Shown here: positions 1,495 to 44,359 of the stretch, piece by piece | How positions within the stretch are numbered: the stretch's first letter is position 1 | Layout: every line of letters starts with the position of its first letter | Source of the DNA: a candidate division FCPU426 bacterium | GTDB taxonomy: Bacteria; Oederibacteriota; Muellerivitia; Muellerivitales; Muellerivitaceae | Assembly (NCBI GenBank): GCA_963771075.1 | Contig: CAVYSE010000003.1 | Coordinates: 1-64,000, forward strand | Length of the DNA stretch: 64,000 nucleotides | Direction: 5' to 3' | Position numbers and translations under genes: made by a program | Notes under the pieces: model-generated | The model's database searches: none | The model's input: the letters and a program-made list of their open reading frames with translations, nothing else | Told to the model about the DNA's origin: nothing

Positions 1495-1826
1495 TTTTTT
1501 CGAATAAAAGTTTCTTATAGATTTTTTCAATGGCCTTTTATCACCCGCATCAAATATTTTAGTTTGATAAACACATAACGTCAGTTGCACACCATCCTTT
1601 TTGCGAGGGCCATGTGCAGGAGCCTGTAATTATTGGATTTTTTCAATGTTCCGCCGAATTCGTTGAAATTTGGATAAGTTCAAATGCAGATTCAATGTCA
1701 ACATCATCTTTCACAGAACTTAGCATAGAAAAAAGGTGCCTGGCCACCTTTATCCGCATTACCTGTCCACGACGGGTCCCCATCGTAGACAACCTGATAA
1801 CGGCTATTTTACCCCCTTTGGTCATG

Positions 1827-1851: not shown

Positions 1852-2019
1852 CCTAGTTTGGCCGCTAAAACAACCGCTTCCCTCACGGCGCGACCAGCCG
1901 TACCGCCCTGCAGGGCGGGTTGAAGGGGTCGTTTTCGGAGCCGCCGCCATGAGCAGGCAAGAGCATAAAAATTATTTCTTTGTAATTGGATCTTTTCTTG
2001 AAGTGCTTAAAGAATTGTT

Positions 2020-4334
2020 TTACGGGCTACCCTTTTTTCCCGGAAAAACCATTTCCCTCACGCCGGTCACCAGCCCCTTCGACTCGGGCTCACGGGAGAG
2101 GTCAATCACCAACCCCGCGGGTTTTTGGGTGGTGACGGGGTCCGTAATATCCATCTCACTCCGGGTGACCAAGGTGCCCTCCACTTGGAATTCCTCCGAT
2201 TGATCGTCCGACCTCAAAAGTTTCGCGTCGCCCGAGGGCTTGAAACTTTCAACCAGCTTATGTTCGCCGATTTCCTTGATCTTCAAAGCGATTGGAAAGG
2301 CTTTGAAAAAAGCGCTGGAATAGCCTGGGCTCAAATATTTGTTGAGTTTGGTTCTCCTGCCCAACAGGTCGTTGTAATCCGCCGTGTAAAAGGCCTGGGC
2401 GAAAGCCTGGGCGGTTTTTGATTCCGCGTTGATTTGGTTGAGAAGGTCCAACTGGGACTGGCCCGAAGGGTTAGTCGAAGGTCTATTATCGGTAGCCGAT
2501 GGGGCCGATTTAGTCAGCAGTCGACGGTTCGCAGCGAGAGCACCAATTCCCTTTTCCGGAATTGGCGCGCTCAAACCTTGTTCCTCGGTTTGAGACCTCG
2601 GAACAGAGGGCAGGGAAGCTTTAGGCGAAATATGAGTGGTGGAAGTTGTTGGGTTTTGGGTTTCACTGAAACCAACATTCGTGCCTTCCTTTGTGTCTTC
2701 GTGTCTTTGTGTTGGATTTGAAGTTCCCGGGGTTGGAATTGTCGTGGGTAGTGGTTGAGGAACAGCCTTACTATCGCTTTCCCAAGGGTTTACCCAAGAC
2801 CCCACCCAATGGATTACTCCAGAAGCGGTCCGGCTCACCAACCCCCTCAAACCCGCCGGGTGGAAGAAGAATAGATAGAGCCCATAAGCCAGGCCCACCA
2901 CCAAGGCGATACCCACCACGCCCTGGGTTATTTTCTTGGCGGGCTTGCCCACCACCTCCCCCAAGAACCTTAGAGTGCCGTTCAAGGCATTTTTTAGGTG
3001 TCGCCCAACCCAGCCGATGGACTTCTTGGCCGGGGGCCAGGTTGTATGCCAAGTCCAATGCAAGATCCGGCCAAAGAAGGCCGCTACCAGGAATAGCTTT
3101 TCCCAGAGGGCGAGGTCTTGCCCTGCCTTGATCTTGGCACGGATGGCCTTGATCCAGGGGATGCCGGCCATGGTGCCCCAAAACACCGACTGGTCGTCGC
3201 TCTCAAGGCGACGGCCATGACCTGTCTGTGCCGATACCATAGGGGTATCGGTGCGAGACTCACCAGGATCATTTTTAGATTCTAGATGGACTGTTTCTGG
3301 CGTATCGGTTGGGGCTGTTTCCCCCGTCAAGGGTTCGGACGGTTTGACCCCCTCGACCTTGGGAGAAGTACGCGGGGTGGGAGTGGGTCCTTCAGGATAG
3401 GCGGATGGGTGGGCCTTATTCTGAACTTTCATGGCTTTTATGTTTTCCGCCACTTTTTGGGAGGTGTATTCCTCAGGCCGATTCCCGGCCTTAATCCAGG
3501 CGACGTAGTCCTTGACCTGGGATTCAGTCATCTGTTCATCAATGGCCACCTGGAGGGCCCGGTAAACTTGGTCTTGGGTCTCGGGGGGGATGAGGGGGTA
3601 GGGGTATAGTTTTTGGGGTTCCCCCCCTCGGCCAAGTCTTTCTTGGGACGACCCGCTTTGAGGCCGGTACCAGGGCCCAAGGCGGCCAATTGGGAGACGG
3701 CCAACTCAGAAATACCCTGAATTCCCTTATTTAAAATGTTCGGGTCCCGAACAATTGCCTCCCTGGTTTTCGGGTTTAGTAACGGTAAAAGCTTAAGCGC
3801 ACGGTTAACCCTATCCAACTCGATCCCCAAATACCCCTTTATCTGCCTTTGGGTCACATAGGGGTTGGCCTTGATAACCCTTTCGACATCCTGGTAATCC
3901 ACCCACCAACCCCGCTGGTCAACAACGTTATCGATCCGGCCTTTGACGACCGTTTCCAACTCGCTAGGGTTGGTGATATAGCAAGGGGCCTTATCCTTTT
4001 GAAGCCGGTTTAAGGCGATCAAACGCCGGTTGCCGCTGAAGACCCAATAGTGGAAGTCCTCCACCCGCCAGGGGCGGCCTTCCAGGGTGATCCGGGGGTT
4101 CTCGGGATGGATCTGGACCCCTTCGGCCAGGGGTTGGGTGCGGTTGGGTTTGAGCTTGAGCGGGTTCTGGAGGTCGTTCTCCCGGATGCTTTCCATCAAC
4201 CCAAGGATGACTTCCTCGCTGGGGGTGCCGCCCGGGTTATCCGGAAGCTGGCTGATGTTCGCGAGCGGAACCTGTTGAATTCCTGGAAACAGCTCTGGCA
4301 GAAGTGCTAATACATCCTCAATCGTGACTGGCAT
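2020..4334 (-). CDS. ParB-like N-terminal domain + HTH + transmembrane helix + extracytoplasmic C-terminal domain; one frameshift at C7 run 3621-3627
   Basis: GGAGG RBS before ATG 4334. LMESIRENDLQNPL and SGNRRLIAL are ParB-like; TQRQIKGYLGIELDRVNRALKLL is HTH-like. One extra G joins ORF 3528..4397 to 2020..3549 (…EGGEPQKLYPYPLIPPETQDQVYRALQVAIDEQ). TM: GVVGIALVVGLAYGLYLFFF. Confidence 0.7.
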
Positions 4335-4802
4335 AGGGAGACCTCCAGCTTCATAATTTTTCTCTCCTAACCGCCAACCACATGTTGGCGGGTACACCGT
4401 AACAACTTAATTTTTATAATCCGAAATAGAACGCATGGTCAAATGGGAACTTCTTCGGGCGTGAATTTTTTCCAGGTTGGACGGTAAACCAGACAGCGAA
4501 TGTGCAAAAAATCGGATTTTGGCACCCAGTAGCCGGGCCGGGTCCTTCGGACAAGTAAGTGTTTTATGTTGGCCTGGCCCCGGTTAACAACGAGAATTGG
4601 CTTTCCAGAAGGTCAATTTCAGCTTTTTTGGGCACAGAAACCTTTTCCTGGGGCTTATTTCAGTGGCCCAGGACGGAAAATTCCGGATTCGGATGGAAGA
4701 AGCGGGGGGGGGCGATATAATGAGAAACAAATTACCCGGCAATGTTTTCAGAGAAGGTCATTCGGGAAATTCCGGTTTAATGTTTATCCGAAAGGCCAAA
4801 CC

Positions 4803-6918
4803 ATGAAGTGCCGCATCGCGGGGATTTTTTTACTCCTGGTTGGATTTACCTTTTTAAACATCGGCTGCCCCGGCAAAAAATCCATGCCTTCCTCGCCCTC
4901 CGGCGGGGGAGGGAACAATAACAACGGCGGCGGCCTGGCCACCAGCGTGGCCTGTCCCCTGACGGCGCCCTCGGCCTCTTTTCAGATCGGAACCAATGGA
5001 ATAGGGTTATCCGTCACCGTGGCGGGCGTTTATGCCGCCGAGGGCCTGGGATACGGAAACGACCTCGCCATCGACCCGGCCAATGGCTATCTTTACGTCT
5101 ATGATGCCGGCAAGGGCCCGCTCTCCTGCCTCGACAACCGGGTGCAGCAATTCAGCCTGTCCGGGCCCTACCAACGGGAATTTTATCCTTCCGGCAACTC
5201 CGTGAGCAACCTGGACTTAGGCGCCTGCGGAGGAATGGCCACCGACAGCTCCGGGAACCTTTATTACGCCTACAATAACATCACCAATGACGGCAGCTGC
5301 GGCGTCACCCTCACCACCTCCGAAATCATAAAATTTAATTCCTCGGGGGTTTCCATTGGGGCCTTCAATGACAGTTCCAATTCGGACGGTGCGATGCGCC
5401 AGATCTACTGCATGACCATCGATTCCCAGAACAACCTTTACGTGGTGGCCGGCGGCAATAGCTATGTCCTGATCCGCAAGTTGACCACCGCGGGCGTCGA
5501 TTTGGCCTCGGTTTCCAGCAACGGCTTCCTGGCTTACGCCAACGCGCTTTCCACCGATTCCAACAACAACCTTTACGTGCTGGACGGCCAGGGCCAGTCG
5601 GTGGCCATTTACAGCCCCAGCCTCCAGGCCCTCGGCGGCTGGGGCAACGGCGGGTCGGGCCAGGGGCAGCTTTACACGCCCATGGGCCTGGCCGTGGGGC
5701 CGGGCAACCTGGTTTACGTGGTGGACGATACCGCCACCAACGGCCGCATCGAGGTCTTCAAGACCGACGGCACCTTCTGCGACGAGCTGGACCTGGCGAG
5801 CAACGTCTTCACCTGGGACGTGAAGGTGGACGCCTCCGGAAACATCTATGTGGAAGAAGCCAATACCGGCGGTTACGAATACCCGGTCAAGTTCAGCCCC
5901 GGCGCCCCGGGCGGGCCGACCGCCACGGCCACTTCCACCCCGGTGAATACCTCCACCCCTGCCGTCCCTTACACACCGACCAACACGCCCACGGTGACTC
6001 CTACTTCAACCCCCGCTTTCACCCCGACGGCCACACCCACACCCATGCCATGGACGGCCGAAACCCTTCCCATTTCGCAGAACTGGACGTCCGTGACCTA
6101 CGGGAACGGGGTTTTTGTGGCGGTTGCCGCCGGACCCAGCACGGTGGCGGCGACTTCGCCCGACGGGATTAATTGGACGGCCCAAACCCTCCCCAGCTCA
6201 CAGGCCTGGGAGTCGGTGGCCTATGGGAATTCCGAGTTTGTGGCGGTCGCATCCGGCAGTAGTTTGAGCGGTACGACGGCGGAAGCGACATCACCGGACG
6301 GCGTCACTTGGACGGCCCACAACCTCCCCGCCGCGCAGAACTGGAAAGCGGCGGCCTACGGGAACGGGGTTTTTGTGGCGGTGGGCGCCCTCGCCAGTGG
6401 AATTCGGCAGTCCCGTGGGAGCCACCTCGCCGGACGGCGTCACTTGGACATCCCGCACCATGCCCAGTTCGGCGGGCTGGACCTCCGTGGCCTACGGGAA
6501 CGGGGTTTTTGTGGCGGTTACTCCTAATAACTCGGTGGCAGCGACATCACCGGACGGCATCACCTGGACGACCCGCACCATGCCCAGTTCGGCGGCTTGG
6601 TACGCCGTCACTTACGGGAATGGGGAGTTTGTGGTGGTTACTTATGGCGGCGCGGCGAAGGCGGCAACCTCACCCGACGGGATCACTTGGACGGCCCAAA
6701 CCCTCCCCAGCACACAGTCCTGGGATTCGGTGACCTACGGGAATGGGTTGTTTGTGGCGGTTATTTATGGCGGCGCGGTGGCGGCGACTTCGCCCGACGG
6801 GGTTACTTGGACCAATGAAACCCTCCCCAGCTCCCAGTACTGGTCCTCCGTGACCAACGGGAATGGGATCCTTGTGGCCGTCGCCGGTTCCAGCGCGGTG
6901 GCGGTGATTTCACCTTGA
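4803..6918 (+). CDS. lipoprotein: NHL-repeat propeller + Thr/Pro linker + 7 Asp-box/YGNG repeats; frameshift near 6400-6406
   Basis: Signal peptide MKCRIAGIFLLLVGFTFLNIGC; NHL motifs (GQLYTPMGLAVGPGNLVYVVD); repeats W..VxYGNGxFVAV…ATSPDGxTW continue across ORFs 4566..6527 and 6373..6918. Confidence 0.8.
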
Positions 6919-7167: not shown

Positions 7168-7345
7168 ATGGAAACCGCCCAGAATCCCGCCCCGGAAGTT
7201 ACCCAACCCGTCATCCGGATGGTTCCCCGGAGCGATCTTTACGTGCCGGATTGGAACCCCCGCAAATACAAAAACGAATCCGAAATGCAGGACCTCATGG
7301 CCTTCATGAAGTCCGGTCGGAAGCCCCTTAGAATACACCTTTTTA
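7168..7345 (+). pseudogene. truncated ParB-like N-terminal fragment at the island edge
   Basis: AGGAGG RBS; VPRSDLYVPDWNPRKYKNESEMQDLMAFMKSGRKPLRI resembles a ParB N-terminus, then runs into AT-rich, non-coding-looking DNA with no GxRR motif. End approximate. Confidence 0.5.
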
Positions 7346-7447
7346 AGCTTTTAGCCTTGGAAACAAAACAGGGGTTTTGTGTAGGGCAAACAAGAGGACC
7401 TAAATTTTCGGTAGTGTCTCAGTTTAAAAGGGCTATTAATTTAAGTC

Positions 7448-7496
7448 GTCATTGCGAGGGTCAGCCCCGACCCTTCGAGAGCCACAGGGCAGGCCC
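7448..7496. repeat. degenerate REP/RPE-like palindromic element
   Basis: gtcattgcgagg and cccttcgagagccacagggcaggccc resemble common intergenic palindromic repeats (recognised from memory only). Confidence 0.3.
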
Positions 7497-7555
7497 ATTC
7501 GATCGACCCCAACCACAGGCCCAAAACGAGTCGATTCGTTTACGATCAGGAGTTC

Positions 7556-8464
7556 TTAGTCGAGCCTTTTCCGGGGGACGCGGCCCTTGGTCGGGCTGAA
7601 ACCCAGGATCGGGAGGGGATAGGGCGACAGCTTGACGACCAAGTGGTCCCCCAACACGAAGGGCAAGATCTTATTGGCCCCATCCAGGTAAATCCGGCCA
7701 TCCCGCATGTAGGAAACAACTTCCATCCTGTTTTTCGGCCCCAAGACGCCCTGGAGCAGGCTGCGGCGCCCGAATTTGGGCAGGTAAGCTTCCCGCACCA
7801 CATATTGGAAGGCCCGCCGCGTGGCCGGTAGGATCTTCCCTCCCGCCGAGAGGTTGGCGGCGGTGGAACCGGCGGCGGTGCTGATCCAAACCCCGCTGGA
7901 CATATGCTCCTCCACCTTTGCACCCACCCGGAGGGTATAGCGGGAAGTCCCGGCCGGGCTCACGGTAGTGACCAGCAAATCGTTCAATACGGGCCAGGGA
8001 TGGACCCGCCCATTCAGGGAAAATTGCAGACGCGGCACGGAGACCGGCTTGATCCGGCCCCGGAGATAACCTTCCAAAACCCTGGGGAAGTTGTCCAAAT
8101 CACACCCGCTGAAGCGGGCCACGCTGCGCAGGGGGTCCGAGTTCACCCCCAAAATCGGGACCTTCCTGGACATGTGGGAGGCGTCCAAAACGGTGCCATC
8201 CCCGCCCACGGTGATCACCAGGTCGTATCGCCCGTCCGCGAACCCCAGTTGGCCGATGTTTCGCCGCAACACGAAATCCACCCTCAGGGCCTTCTTTTTT
8301 AAATAGGTCCGCACGCCCTGGACCGTATCGTGATGCCTTTGGTGGCTTCCCTTCAGGACTTCCCAATATTCCCCCAATTTCACGCGGGGAGGGAGAGGCC
8401 GTATTTTCTCTATGCGCGTCAATGAGCTTTCTTTATAAGCCACGAGTATTTTGGGGGACTTCAT
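7556..8464 (-). CDS. nadK: NAD(+)/NADH kinase
   Basis: GGDGTVL, GVNSDP, LND and STAAGSTA..LSAGG motifs. Confidence 0.9.
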   Translation of the reverse strand: MKSPKILVAYKESSLTRIEKIRPLPPRVKLGEYWEVLKGSHQRHHDTVQGVRTYLKKKALRVDFVLRRNIGQLGFADGRYDLVITVGGDGTVLDASHMSRKVPILGVNSDPLRSVARFSGCDLDNFPRVLEGYLRGRIKPVSVPRLQFSLNGRVHPWPVLNDLLVTTVSPAGTSRYTLRVGAKVEEHMSSGVWISTAAGSTAANLSAGGKILPATRRAFQYVVREAYLPKFGRRSLLQGVLGPKNRMEVVSYMRDGRIYLDGANKILPFVLGDHLVVKLSPYPLPILGFSPTKGRVPRKRLD

Positions 8465-28239: not shown

Positions 28240-29710
28240 CTACTCGTTTTCGAGGAAATGGAGCAAGCTTCGCACCATTAAACCGGTACCTCCATAAGAA
28301 AGGTAGGGTATGGAAGGATATTCCCTTTCCAGGTATGCCGGGCCCGCGATATCTAAATGAACCCAGGGTGTTTCACCCACGAATTCCTGCAAAAAAAGAG
28401 CTGCGGTAATGGTTCCCGCTTCCCGTCCACTTCCGATATTTTTGATATCCGCCACCTTGCTCTTGATATCCTCCCTGTATTCCTTGACCAGTGGCAATTC
28501 CCAAATGGATTCTCCTTCCACCTCCGTCGCGGCCTTGACCCGGTTCAAGAGGGATTGGTCATTGGCCAAGGCTCCTGCCACCAAGGAACCCAGCGCCACC
28601 ACGCAAGCCCCCGTCAGGGTGGCCATATCGATAATGCCGTCCACTTTCTGCCGGTCTGCGTAACTTAGGCCGTCCGAAAGGATCAAACGACCTTCCGCGT
28701 CGGTATTCAATACTTCCATGGTCTTGCCATTGAGAGCCTTTAAAACATCCCCCGGCTTGTAAGCCCTTCCGCCTGGCATGTTTTCGGTGGTTGGAATGAT
28801 TCCATGGACCTCCACCGAGGGTTGAATCCTTTCGATTTGGCTGAAAACCCCTAAAACAGCAGCTGCCCCGGACATGTCCATTTTCATGGTTTCCATTCCG
28901 GATGCGGGTTTCAAGGATAAACCGCCGGAGTCAAAAGTGATCCCTTTACCCACGATGGCCAAGGATTTCTTGGCTTTCCCCTCGGGTTTGTAATGAAGGT
29001 GAATCAGATAAGGTTCCTGGGCGCTCCCCCGGTTCACGCCCAAGCAGGCCGCCCGCTCCCATTTTCGTTAGTTCTTTCTTTCCAAAAACTTTGAGCCGGA
29101 TATTCCCCTTGGCGATTTTGCGAGCGGTGTCAGCCAACACTTTCGGAGTCACATCACTGGGAGCCCCATTGATTAGATCCCTCGCCAGAATCGCACCCTT
29201 TCCATAGGCCTCGGCCTTGGACAAAGCTTTCTCCACCTTCCCTTTTCTTTCTTTTTTTATGACCACAAAAATCTGTTGAAGCCCCGGGGAAAGATCCTTG
29301 TTGGGAGTCTTATACCGGTTAAATTGGTAGGAACCCAACCAAACCCCCTCGGCGAAGGCAAATAATAGTTCTTCCGAAAAAAACTTGGGCCACTCCAGCG
29401 TTACATCCTCCATCCTCATTTCCCGGGCTTTACGGGCCAGACGCCCCCCGGCCCTCCGCATGGATTCCAAACCCAATCCTGATTTGGGCCCCAAACCCAG
29501 CGCGACCAGGCGCCTGGTCCTCCCATGAACGGTTGGATTGGCTAACCCCGCCGTGGATTCCTTACCGGTAAAGCCCTCTTGTTCCAAACCCGCCCTGATT
29601 GAATCGCTTTCCTTCCCAAGGGCGTTCGCAAAACCCTTCTCCTTCTCAAAAGCGAAATAAATAATATTTTTTTTATCCTTCGGGGCGACCAGGGTCGTTT
29701 TGAATTTCAT
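28240..29710 (-). CDS. pepA: leucyl aminopeptidase; frameshift ~29040
   Basis: GKGITFDSGG, MKMDMSGAA, NTDAEGRL; N-terminal half in ORF 28946..29755. Confidence 0.93.
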
Positions 29711-29816
29711 GGAGAATCTCCTTATGAGTAAAAATGGATGCGTCACCCTCATCACGGGGCCGGATTAAGCGTGTATTTTATCCAATGGATTTTGAAAGAT
29801 ACAACCCGCCCATTTT

Positions 29817-43091: not shown

Positions 43092-44359
43092 TCAGGCTGT
43101 GTTCTCGCCCCGGCCCTTCTGATAGACCAGGATGGGTTCTTCTTTTTTTAGGATAACACCTTCGGTAATGACGGTTTCCTTGATGTCTTTACGGGAAGGA
43201 ATCTCATACATCAAATCCATCATGACGTCTTCCAGGATCGCTCTTAAACCCCTGGCACCTGATTGGCGTTTAATGGCTTCCCGGGCGACCGCCTGCAAGG
43301 CCTCGGGGGTGAATTTCAGTTTCACATTCTCCATCTCGAAATAACGGTGATACTGCTTGGTCAAGGCATTCTTAGGTTCGGTCAAAACGCGTACCAAAGA
43401 ATTCTCGTCCAATTCGTTCAAAGCCGCCATAACCGGGAGACGGCCAATAAACTCTGGGATCAACCCGAATTTGATGAGGTCCTCGGGCTGGGTCAAATCA
43501 AACAGCTCGCCCAACTTTTTTTCCTGACGGCTGAGGGTTTCTCCTTTGAATCCGATGGAACGCCGGCCCAAACGATTCTCGATGATTTTTTCCAGCCCCA
43601 CAAATGCGCCGCCACAGATGAATAGGATATTCGAGGAATCAACCTTGATGTATTCCTGGTGGGGGTGCTTACGACCACCTTGGGGGGGACATTGACCTCG
43701 GTCCCCTCGATGATTTTAAGTAGTGCCTGTTGAACGCCCTCCCCCGAAACATCACGGGTGATACTGGGATTTTCGGATTTGCGGCTAATCTTATCAATTT
43801 CATCAATATAAATAATGCCCCGTTGGGCTTTTTGGACATCGAACTCGGCGTTCTGGAGAAGCTTCAAAATAATATTTTCCACATCTTCGCCAACATAACC
43901 CGCCTCGGTGAGGGTGGTGGCGTCGGCCACGGCAAAGGGTACATCCAAAATGCGGGCCAGGGTTTGCGCTAGTAAAGTCTTTCCCACCCCCGTTGGGCCG
44001 ATCAAAAGCACATTGCTTTTCTGCAGTTCCACCTCTTGAGGCCCGGTCTTGACGGTTAAACGCTTGTAGTGGTTATGGACCGCAACCGAAAGGATGCGCT
44101 TAGCCTTTTCCTGGCCGATCACGTACTGATCCAGGACATCCTTGATTTCAACCGGACGCGGAATGGTCAAACGGGGCTTGGGAGCACCCGACTTGGGTTC
44201 CTCGGTCTTTTCCTCTTCCCTGAGAATGTCGTTACATAAGGCGACACACTCATTGCAGATGTAAACAGTGGGACCGGCAACGAGCTTTTTGACCTCTTCC
44301 TGGCTTTTACCGCAAAAAGAACATCTTAAAAGGTTTGTCTTGTCCCGGTCGCCAGGCAT
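43092..44359 (-). CDS. clpX: ATP-dependent Clp protease ATP-binding subunit; frameshift ~43680-43688
   Basis: CSFCGK zinc finger, [13 protein letters not shown]; +1 base restores NVPPxGGRKHP…ILFICGGAF. Confidence 0.96.

Follow-up and report, generated by a model that had tools for sequence, protein, structure and literature searches.

The window, i.e. the whole 64,000-nt stretch of DNA analysed, is G000:C3:1-64000 of a 4.39 Mb genome (G000, in 28 contigs) of an uncultured soil/bog bacterium, and carries two minus-strand open reading frames (4334-3528 and 3549-2020) that overlap at a C7 run (3621-3627). The original prediction was that one base added to this homopolymer would join the two frames into a protein of about 770 aa. 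A paralogue on contig C13, 98.7% identical to the window gene over 2,563 nt, is open in frame throughout, and the sole gap between the two is an extra C in the C7 run. We also compared contigs of four runs (X1-X4; the place is without cover in X2). The extra C is present in X1 (a contig of 1,356 nt covering 3213-4567, with three other differing letters and one gap, from a run that may be the source sample) and in X4, which comes from a different study; in X3, whose contig is more divergent, the added letter is a T at the edge of the run. The frame break is an assembly error and the locus holds a single gene of 771 codons, as predicted; two separate genes or a true pseudogene are ruled out by the C13 paralogue and the X1 and X4 contigs. 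Elsewhere in the window, pepA (28240-29755) and clpX (43092-44359), both named from their translations, and a lipoprotein gene (4804-6918) are apparently also split by single-base errors, implying that the assembly is indel-prone. The domain order of the fused product likewise agreed with the prediction (ParB fold, HTH, Pro/Thr/Glu linker, amphipathic helices, transmembrane (TM) helix, stalk, alpha-then-beta domain), and the features of the locus are as follows.

2020..4334, minus strand: whole gene, 771 aa, with ParB CTPase fold, HTH domain, linker, membrane module, stalk and VirB8-like domain (open reading frames, C13 paralogue, run contigs)
4335..4579, minus strand: upstream region, common to copy C11 (99%) and partly to C27 by DNA comparison; ribosome-binding site at 4342-4346
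3927..4334, minus strand: ParB/Srx NTPase fold (Pfam ParB_N and model of the C11 paralogue)
4244-4230, minus strand: Box I-like NPG, Arg replaced by Gly (sequence)
4037-4023, minus strand: Box II GNRR (sequence)
near 3930, minus strand: Box III DN (sequence)
3465..3926, minus strand: ParB-type DNA-binding domain (aligns with those of Noc, ParB and KorB)
3854-3828, minus strand: HTH helix 2 (coordinates on the window gene)
3821-3795, minus strand: recognition helix (coordinates on the window gene)
3735..3755, no strand: odd-centred in-gene palindrome, candidate own binding site (centre 3745, 8 contiguous pairs)
3621..3627, no strand: homopolymer, one base short in the assembly (C13 paralogue and run contigs)
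3200..3464, minus strand: Pro/Thr/Glu-rich linker, differing among copies (sequence)
2920..3199, minus strand: Trp/Lys-rich amphipathic helices, predicted on the cytoplasmic face (hydrophobic moments)
2863..2919, minus strand: predicted TM helix after a lysine cluster (Kyte-Doolittle 2.35)
2450..2862, minus strand: amphipathic helix and low-complexity stalk, predicted periplasmic (sequence, and the single TM helix)
2044..2448, minus strand: VirB8/DotI-like NTF2-fold domain (type A), 135 aa (model, structure and profile searches)
1878..1945, minus strand: stub of the 3' end of a type-B C-domain, after the stop codon (84-91% DNA match to type-B copy ends; translation by eye)
1735..1748, no strand: second copy of a junction motif, downstream of the gene (motif search)

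Pfam ParB_N scores above its cut-off in several paralogues and reaches only E 0.015, below the cut-off, in the window copy. The N-terminal part was therefore assessed from a model of the intact C11 paralogue (pLDDT 91.9), whose ParB-part DNA is 99% identical to that of the window gene. The best Foldseek match of this model was Noc (E 5e-9), and VIA returned KorB (Z 13.1), Noc (12.9) and ParB (12.7), with matches spanning both the CTPase and HTH domains, which bears out the earlier reading of a ParB-like N-terminal domain. The Gly and Arg of Box II (G-x-x-R) and the Asn of Box III are invariant (32/32 rows), whereas the Arg of Box I (C motif) is present in 16 of the 32 and is Gly in the window's subfamily. 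CTP-driven clamping by the family proteins is somewhat favoured. Membership of Noc itself was not indicated by TIGR04285 (scores of 16 and 44 against a cut-off of 315), and the anchor is an internal TM helix, not Noc's N-terminal amphipathic membrane helix.

The palindrome lies within the coding sequence, 13 codons behind the recognition helix, and its core on the coding strand is TGTTCGGG-A-CCCGAACA, then AATAAGGG. In the subfamily of the window gene, a palindrome with 7-9 of 9 pairs stands at the same codon position in 34 of 35 rows, the exception being misaligned. The left arms take 29 different forms, and of background centres 0.0003 reach at least 8 pairs. Family-wide, at least 8 of 10 pairs were found in 55 of the 63 first-HTH rows, all in one codon phase, and a palindrome in none of eight second HTHs, which belong to tandem proteins and have an acidic helix. 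Residues fitting mirror-image codons were also present in 22 of 24 new protein-only rows (21% when shuffled). Even with two mismatches allowed, the window's site is confined to C3 and C13, the copies with the same helix. Among open reading frames with domain A, the palindrome was found in 4/6 that bear ParB and 0/11 that do not, some of which may be fragments.

A mutual-information scan made without a tree mixed true and lineage signals and was replaced by a tree-based test, in which independent pairs were counted on a tree of 65 rows (25 of them soluble tandem ParB-ParB proteins) built by a quick method with helix and site left out. The test covered 1,482 residue/base combinations, with row L014 dropped as misaligned; recombination can blur the tree, yet the residue/base rules hold across mixed backgrounds. 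The best five of the 1,482 pairs all fell at HTH contact positions. Helix-2 Arg covaried with G1, and within the recognition helix Arg at residue 2 covaried with G2 (12/13 rows; 7.6/8 pairs, sign test p 0.008), Asn at residue 6 with T3, Glu at residue 3 with C4 and Lys at residue 4 with G5; Pro at residue 3 accompanied A4 in 11/11 rows. Columns between helix and site, where linkage is tighter, reached a net of 5.0 once and otherwise at most 3.3. In Caulobacter ParB, R173 bonds G1 of parS (PMC7383237, in part), which the residue 2 Arg/G pair appears to mirror, the equivalence being by helix count; in this respect the family resembles the ParB, Noc and KorB clamps. Each protein is thus very probably a sequence-specific binder of its own gene's palindrome, as predicted from these covarying positions.

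The palindromes might instead be single-strand hairpins for REP-associated transposases, or leftovers of template switching, that the HTH does not read. The genome has 22 tblastn matches to a REP-associated tyrosine transposase, a short GC-rich junction motif lies near an end of 7/20 copies (0.9 expected), and many small inverted repeats occur in the family genes, all of which would fit. Position-by-position covariation with HTH contact residues across different backgrounds would not, nor would the 10.5-bp phasing of the arrays described below, which points to protein on double-stranded DNA, and we regard this reading as highly improbable. The junction motif is nevertheless a lead to how copies move: at C5 it follows a REP-associated transposase gene, and upstream of the window gene the homology with C11 and C27 stops at a short GGGGCCAGGCC copy of it (4569-4579). 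The family copies have no common ends. Contigs joined across the gene were found in none of eight runs; the flanks are without cover in four runs, to which no weight is given, and a 4581-to-2019 joint in X3, considered as a circle, is probably the short junction motif instead. Odd-centred in-gene palindromes with a varying core were also seen in ORF6N genes (L152:2749-2788, and downstream of copies C1b and C27), possibly reflecting the same self-site principle; a search of the literature on ORF6N or DUF1016 with palindromes gave nothing relevant.

We assessed the distribution and fold of the C-terminal domain (type A, hereafter domain A). Its profile retrieved 113 proteins among 1.84 billion, 59 of which have at least 200 residues N-terminal to the domain; a hydrophobic segment occurs in 56 of these 59, and 33 include a ParB domain. 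By hydropathy only, the 33 long ParB-bearing proteins contain one such segment in 25 cases, none in two and two to four in six. An N-in/C-out membrane tether is the probable topology, although the two to four hydrophobic helices of some relatives leave it weakly fixed and count against the explanation favoured below. The domain-A model (pLDDT 89.2) matched an IcmL-like protein, DotI, TraM, CagV and PrgL (E from 2e-6, TM 0.6-0.7). In an unbiased VIA search of 48,161 chains, the best 11 rows were all VirB8-type proteins of type IV secretion systems (T4SS; Z 15.8-12.0), the next other chain scoring 11.4, and the list also holds a non-T4SS NTF2 fold, that of RsgI9 (Z 11.1). Leads from the ESM Atlas were all below 0.9 (ARC6-like IMS 0.84), and there was no match to domain A in Pfam, the PDB sequence search or NCBIfam.

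Pfam models of VirB8, TrbI and CagE/TrbE had zero matches in the genome, and the TraG P-loop model identified two VirB4-like genes. Searched against the 44,017 six-frame open reading frames of the genome, the domain-A profile (99 sequences) had just two matches outside the family, at E 6e-11 and 6e-6, both of them small TM proteins whose genes follow those of VirB4-like ATPases; the next match was at E 1. Of 22 VirB8-like proteins from 22 clusters of relatives, 20 scored E <1e-4 against it, and the comparison between the domain-A profile and that of the ICE VirB8-like proteins gave a probability of 98.6 (E 1.2e-15). Therefore, as judged from sequence profiles, domain A is a homologue of the VirB8-like subunit in the lineage's own ICE-like T4SS clusters, likely captured from an ICE rather than the reverse. 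The VirB8/NTF2-like assignment, originally tentative, thus gains both a fold match to DotI/VirB8 and profile homology, the latter favouring the idea of a tether to a transfer pore.

The type-A gene is outside the T4SS clusters, of which the genome has two (C3:383-398 kb and C8:61-81 kb). These compact ICE-like clusters (G000:C3:383216-398110 and C8:61000-81000), both far from family copies, combine genes for a VirB4-like ATPase and a VirB8-like protein with those for a TPR-GGDEF protein and for an integrase or serine recombinase; relatives have clusters of a similar kind, and most of the genes are without a Pfam match. By eye, the ICE loci held no evident odd palindrome of the family type. Two further loci (G000:C12:7678-13672 and C27:55313-59731) encode a T4SS coupling protein with a 266/298-aa neighbour, to which C12 adds parA-parB and C27 an integrase. 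Relatives have genes for LpxB and porins, which suggests a diderm envelope.

About 20 loci of the genome carry the gene or pieces of it, six ending in type A and nine in the unrelated type B. Type B, which we tentatively read from its motifs as a PH plus a PDZ domain, had no useful match in the ESM Atlas and none to the ICE loci. Modules of the family are mixed and matched among copies: copy C11 shares with the window gene the ParB part (99%), and neither the recognition region (84%) nor the C-domain, two C28 copies share the C-domain (96%) and have a different N-part, and C9 and C21 share the stalk and C-domain, joined to a third kind of N-part. The type-B stub past the stop codon of the window gene appears, from its sequence, to be a trace of a C-terminal module swap. 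A fragment of another family ParB N-terminus was also detected at window 7168-7599, 2.8 kb from the gene. Beyond these forms, soluble tandem ParB-HTH-ParB-HTH proteins of about 570 aa are encoded at G000:C23:109058-110701 and at many metagenome loci, and L042, L043, L174-L181, L188, P0007 and relatives have a helical N-part, a TM helix and a VirB8-like domain, and lack the ParB NTPase and palindrome.

A search of 99 genomes from the phylum located domain A in 12, all members of a single bacterial family. The 30 loci compared, from eight genomes, had no neighbour in common, and around 30 copies the two closest genes on either side, 111 in all, were housekeeping, toxin-antitoxin (TA), IS and ORF6N genes. 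By Pfam, none of these 111 was a parA, relaxase, coupling protein, integrase or T4SS gene; the sole CbiA/AAA_26 match adjoins a class-III aminotransferase gene and is best taken for a biotin enzyme. The absence of an adjacent parA, already remarked for the window, therefore extends to all 30 copies, and the other parB genes of the genome are on C25 and C12. The suggested setting in a mobile element did not hold for a conjugative one: the gene stands alone, at unrelated loci, with no T4SS or relaxase neighbours, and a place within a local ICE, plasmid or prophage was rejected for lack of such neighbours.

Besides the in-gene sites, a search with the palindrome-flank pattern gave matches in 11/31 family genomes (reversed control, 0). 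Many of these matches are non-coding arrays beside unrelated genes, with a different core in each unit. In the genome of the window the arrays are as follows.

C22:24176-24648
C24:42287-42464
C20:36152-36311
C24:143208-143461

Centre spacings in the C22 array are 42, 63, 63, 52, 63, 64, 52 and 73 bp, and like arrays occur in six other genomes (G001, G002, G008, G018, G021 and G044). Over 10 arrays from seven genomes, the 38 centre spacings had a mean cos(2*pi*x/10.5) of 0.88, and the 19 distinct spacings a mean cosine of 0.795, equalled by 0/20,000 random sets. Phasing at 10.5 bp argues for proteins on one face of double-stranded DNA. Moreover, 9 of 37 distinct array units equal an in-gene half-site of another genome or metagenome (null 2.6, p 0.0008), where the null draws one arm although two were compared and the list of in-gene sites is incomplete. 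The arrays would be passengers or decoys with sites for many family members. They have also to be weighed as part of a domesticated network in which the nucleoid would be held at the envelope, in a Noc-like manner, by about 20 membrane-bound clamps and the phased arrays. Noc is among the top structural matches and in-phase sites suit membrane-bound readers; however, domain A is patchy (12/31 family genomes), synteny is lacking and many copies are broken, array sites mostly match genes of other genomes, and a host system needs no orthogonal codes. We consider such a network decidedly unlikely.

Taken as a whole, the best explanation (probability roughly 0.45) is a solo multi-copy gene whose clamp loads on its own palindrome, ties its locus to the inner membrane and possibly docks on the conjugation machine of an ICE. 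The ParB-type clamp would load on the palindrome inside its own coding sequence and, through its membrane anchor, hold that locus at the envelope; the VirB8-like domain, outside, could dock in the channel of a co-resident ICE, and the docked clamp might then bring its locus along, so that the gene hitchhikes. Rapid divergence of helix and site would let many such genes coexist orthogonally in a cell, and the arrays may play the part of oriT mimics. Docking of the VirB8-like domain on a T4SS has slightly less than an even chance, and a gain in DNA transfer through docking is doubtful. It is equally doubtful that the gene is a minimal selfish element, serving at once as its own centromere, clamp and pore adaptor and sending its locus via a helper ICE, with the phased arrays as second-level hitchhikers or decoys. 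As there are no relaxase, coupling protein, integrase or T4SS neighbours, cutting and re-insertion of the tethered DNA is unexplained. The nine type-B copies and the soluble tandem proteins (25/65 rows) use the self-site as well, which implies that neither membrane nor VirB8-like domain is needed for it. Several results count against the explanation as a whole: the Box I Arg is absent from the window's own subfamily (and half of all rows), NTF2 folds also serve as sensors (RsgI9) and in division (ARC6), and domain A does not co-occur with VirB4-like genes above chance (12 and 14 of the 31 family genomes, respectively; both in 7).

This distribution includes a 90% complete genome (G002) with nine copies and zero VirB4 match. 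In another reading the gene inhibits conjugation: its VirB8-like domain would poison or plug ICE machines, as fertility inhibition or entry exclusion, and the ParB/site pair would do no more than set the dose. Homology to the native VirB8, the persistence of copies in genomes without a VirB4 match, the versions that retain TM helix and domain A without ParB and site, and the frequency of TA and IS genes among neighbours are all consistent with such an inhibitor. It would not account for the type-B and soluble forms, nor for the clamp kept in 33/59 long domain-A proteins, and PADLOC (2023 library) matched 0/7 family proteins or pieces. We therefore hold conjugation inhibition to be quite unlikely.

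A transmembrane one-component regulator has also to be considered, in which a KorB-like clamp would repress or activate its own gene at an in-gene operator under an exchangeable periplasmic sensor, either type B or a captured VirB8-like domain that senses mating or envelope contact. The best structural match by VIA is the repressor KorB, C-domains are freely swapped, soluble variants exist, RsgI9 has an extracellular NTF2 domain, and orthogonal helix/site pairs fit independent autoregulation. Yet each site is almost unique to its own gene, so that a regulon is lacking; the genes next to arrays are unrelated; and controlling nothing but itself offers no clear benefit. Regulation of this kind, including the proposed sensor, is an unlikely account, if one with several points in its favour. 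ToxR/CadC-like regulators have a cytoplasmic DNA-binding domain, a TM helix and a periplasmic domain, the former being a winged helix with a regulon. The family has the same layout by prediction and differs by its ParB CTPase and self-site.

Compared with known clamps (ParB/Spo0J-parS, Noc-NBS and KorB-OB), the family shares the CTPase fold, the HTH domain and a palindromic site (here by covariation and phasing). A site within the gene itself has a parallel in B. subtilis, where parS-359 is within parB (PMC4442127, in part). Unlike these clamps, the family is without ParA, and a predicted integral membrane anchor and periplasmic domain replace the soluble dimerisation domain. Site preferences of ParB and Noc are conserved across species (PMC7383237, in part), whereas in this family a genome holds many paralogues whose sites differ from copy to copy (29 arms in 35 rows). 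Noc binds membranes and KorB regulates genes (PMC12704722, in part). With VirB8, DotI(IcmL), TraM and TcpC, the family has in common the NTF2-like fold (Z up to 15.8), a predicted bitopic layout and homology to the ICE-like VirB8; unlike these subunits, domain A follows on 630 aa of DNA clamp, anchor and stalk in one protein, and its gene is outside a T4SS cluster.

Two mobilisation strategies offer further comparison. The element SGI1 supplies its own T4SS channel subunits, and its TraG-S reshapes the helper's pilus (PMC11389934, in part). As in SGI1-type mobilisable elements, so far as that source goes, the hitcher here would encode a look-alike of the helper's channel protein; unlike them, it is one gene without integrase, relaxase or known oriT, its subunit fused to a DNA reader. 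In the staphylococcal system of oriT mimics and SmpO, reader/site pairs are diversified, one residue switches specificity and passengers carry site mimics (PMC8136818, in part). SmpO, as described there, is a soluble relaxosome factor, whereas the reader here is of ParB type and predicted to be membrane-bound, and its site is in its own coding sequence.

A literature search, mostly outside subscription journals, did not find a ParB-VirB8 fusion; nor, within the same scope (few subscription papers), a TM-fused ParB, a per-copy self-site code or phased mixed-site arrays. In a 2025 survey of ParB folds, the words VirB8 and NTF2 are absent from the main text and supplement text, large tables perhaps excepted (PMC12704722, in part). 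The family offers dozens of matched HTH/site pairs, a natural library in which one gene reveals both partners of a pair; even without the transfer step, it should yield the recognition code of ParB-type domains position by position. It makes the diversification of ParB/parS specificity directly testable, and could supply orthogonal parS/ParB pairs for locus labelling. If domain A docks on a conjugation channel, this would be ICE hitchhiking by physical tethering, without a relaxase supplied by the hitchhiker, and the first membrane-integral clamp.

Other features of the window lie close to the gene. A Panacea/SocA antitoxin (E 8e-21) and a MAG6450-like partner, likely a toxin-antitoxin pair, occupy 577-1494, with an inverted repeat upstream (514-567). 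A 38-bp repeat at 1583-1620 has about 20 copies, several of them at intervals of about 800 bp (C3:410874-414235, and C8), and could represent attC-like cassette ends. At 1764-1850 is a short element common to C5, C9, C13 and C21, with inverted ends that resemble an IS3-family end. Finally, a repeated 200-bp promoter-like block at 4587-4786 is also present on C7, C8 and C12, and the same 30-nt foreign flank is found ahead of it in 7/8 runs.
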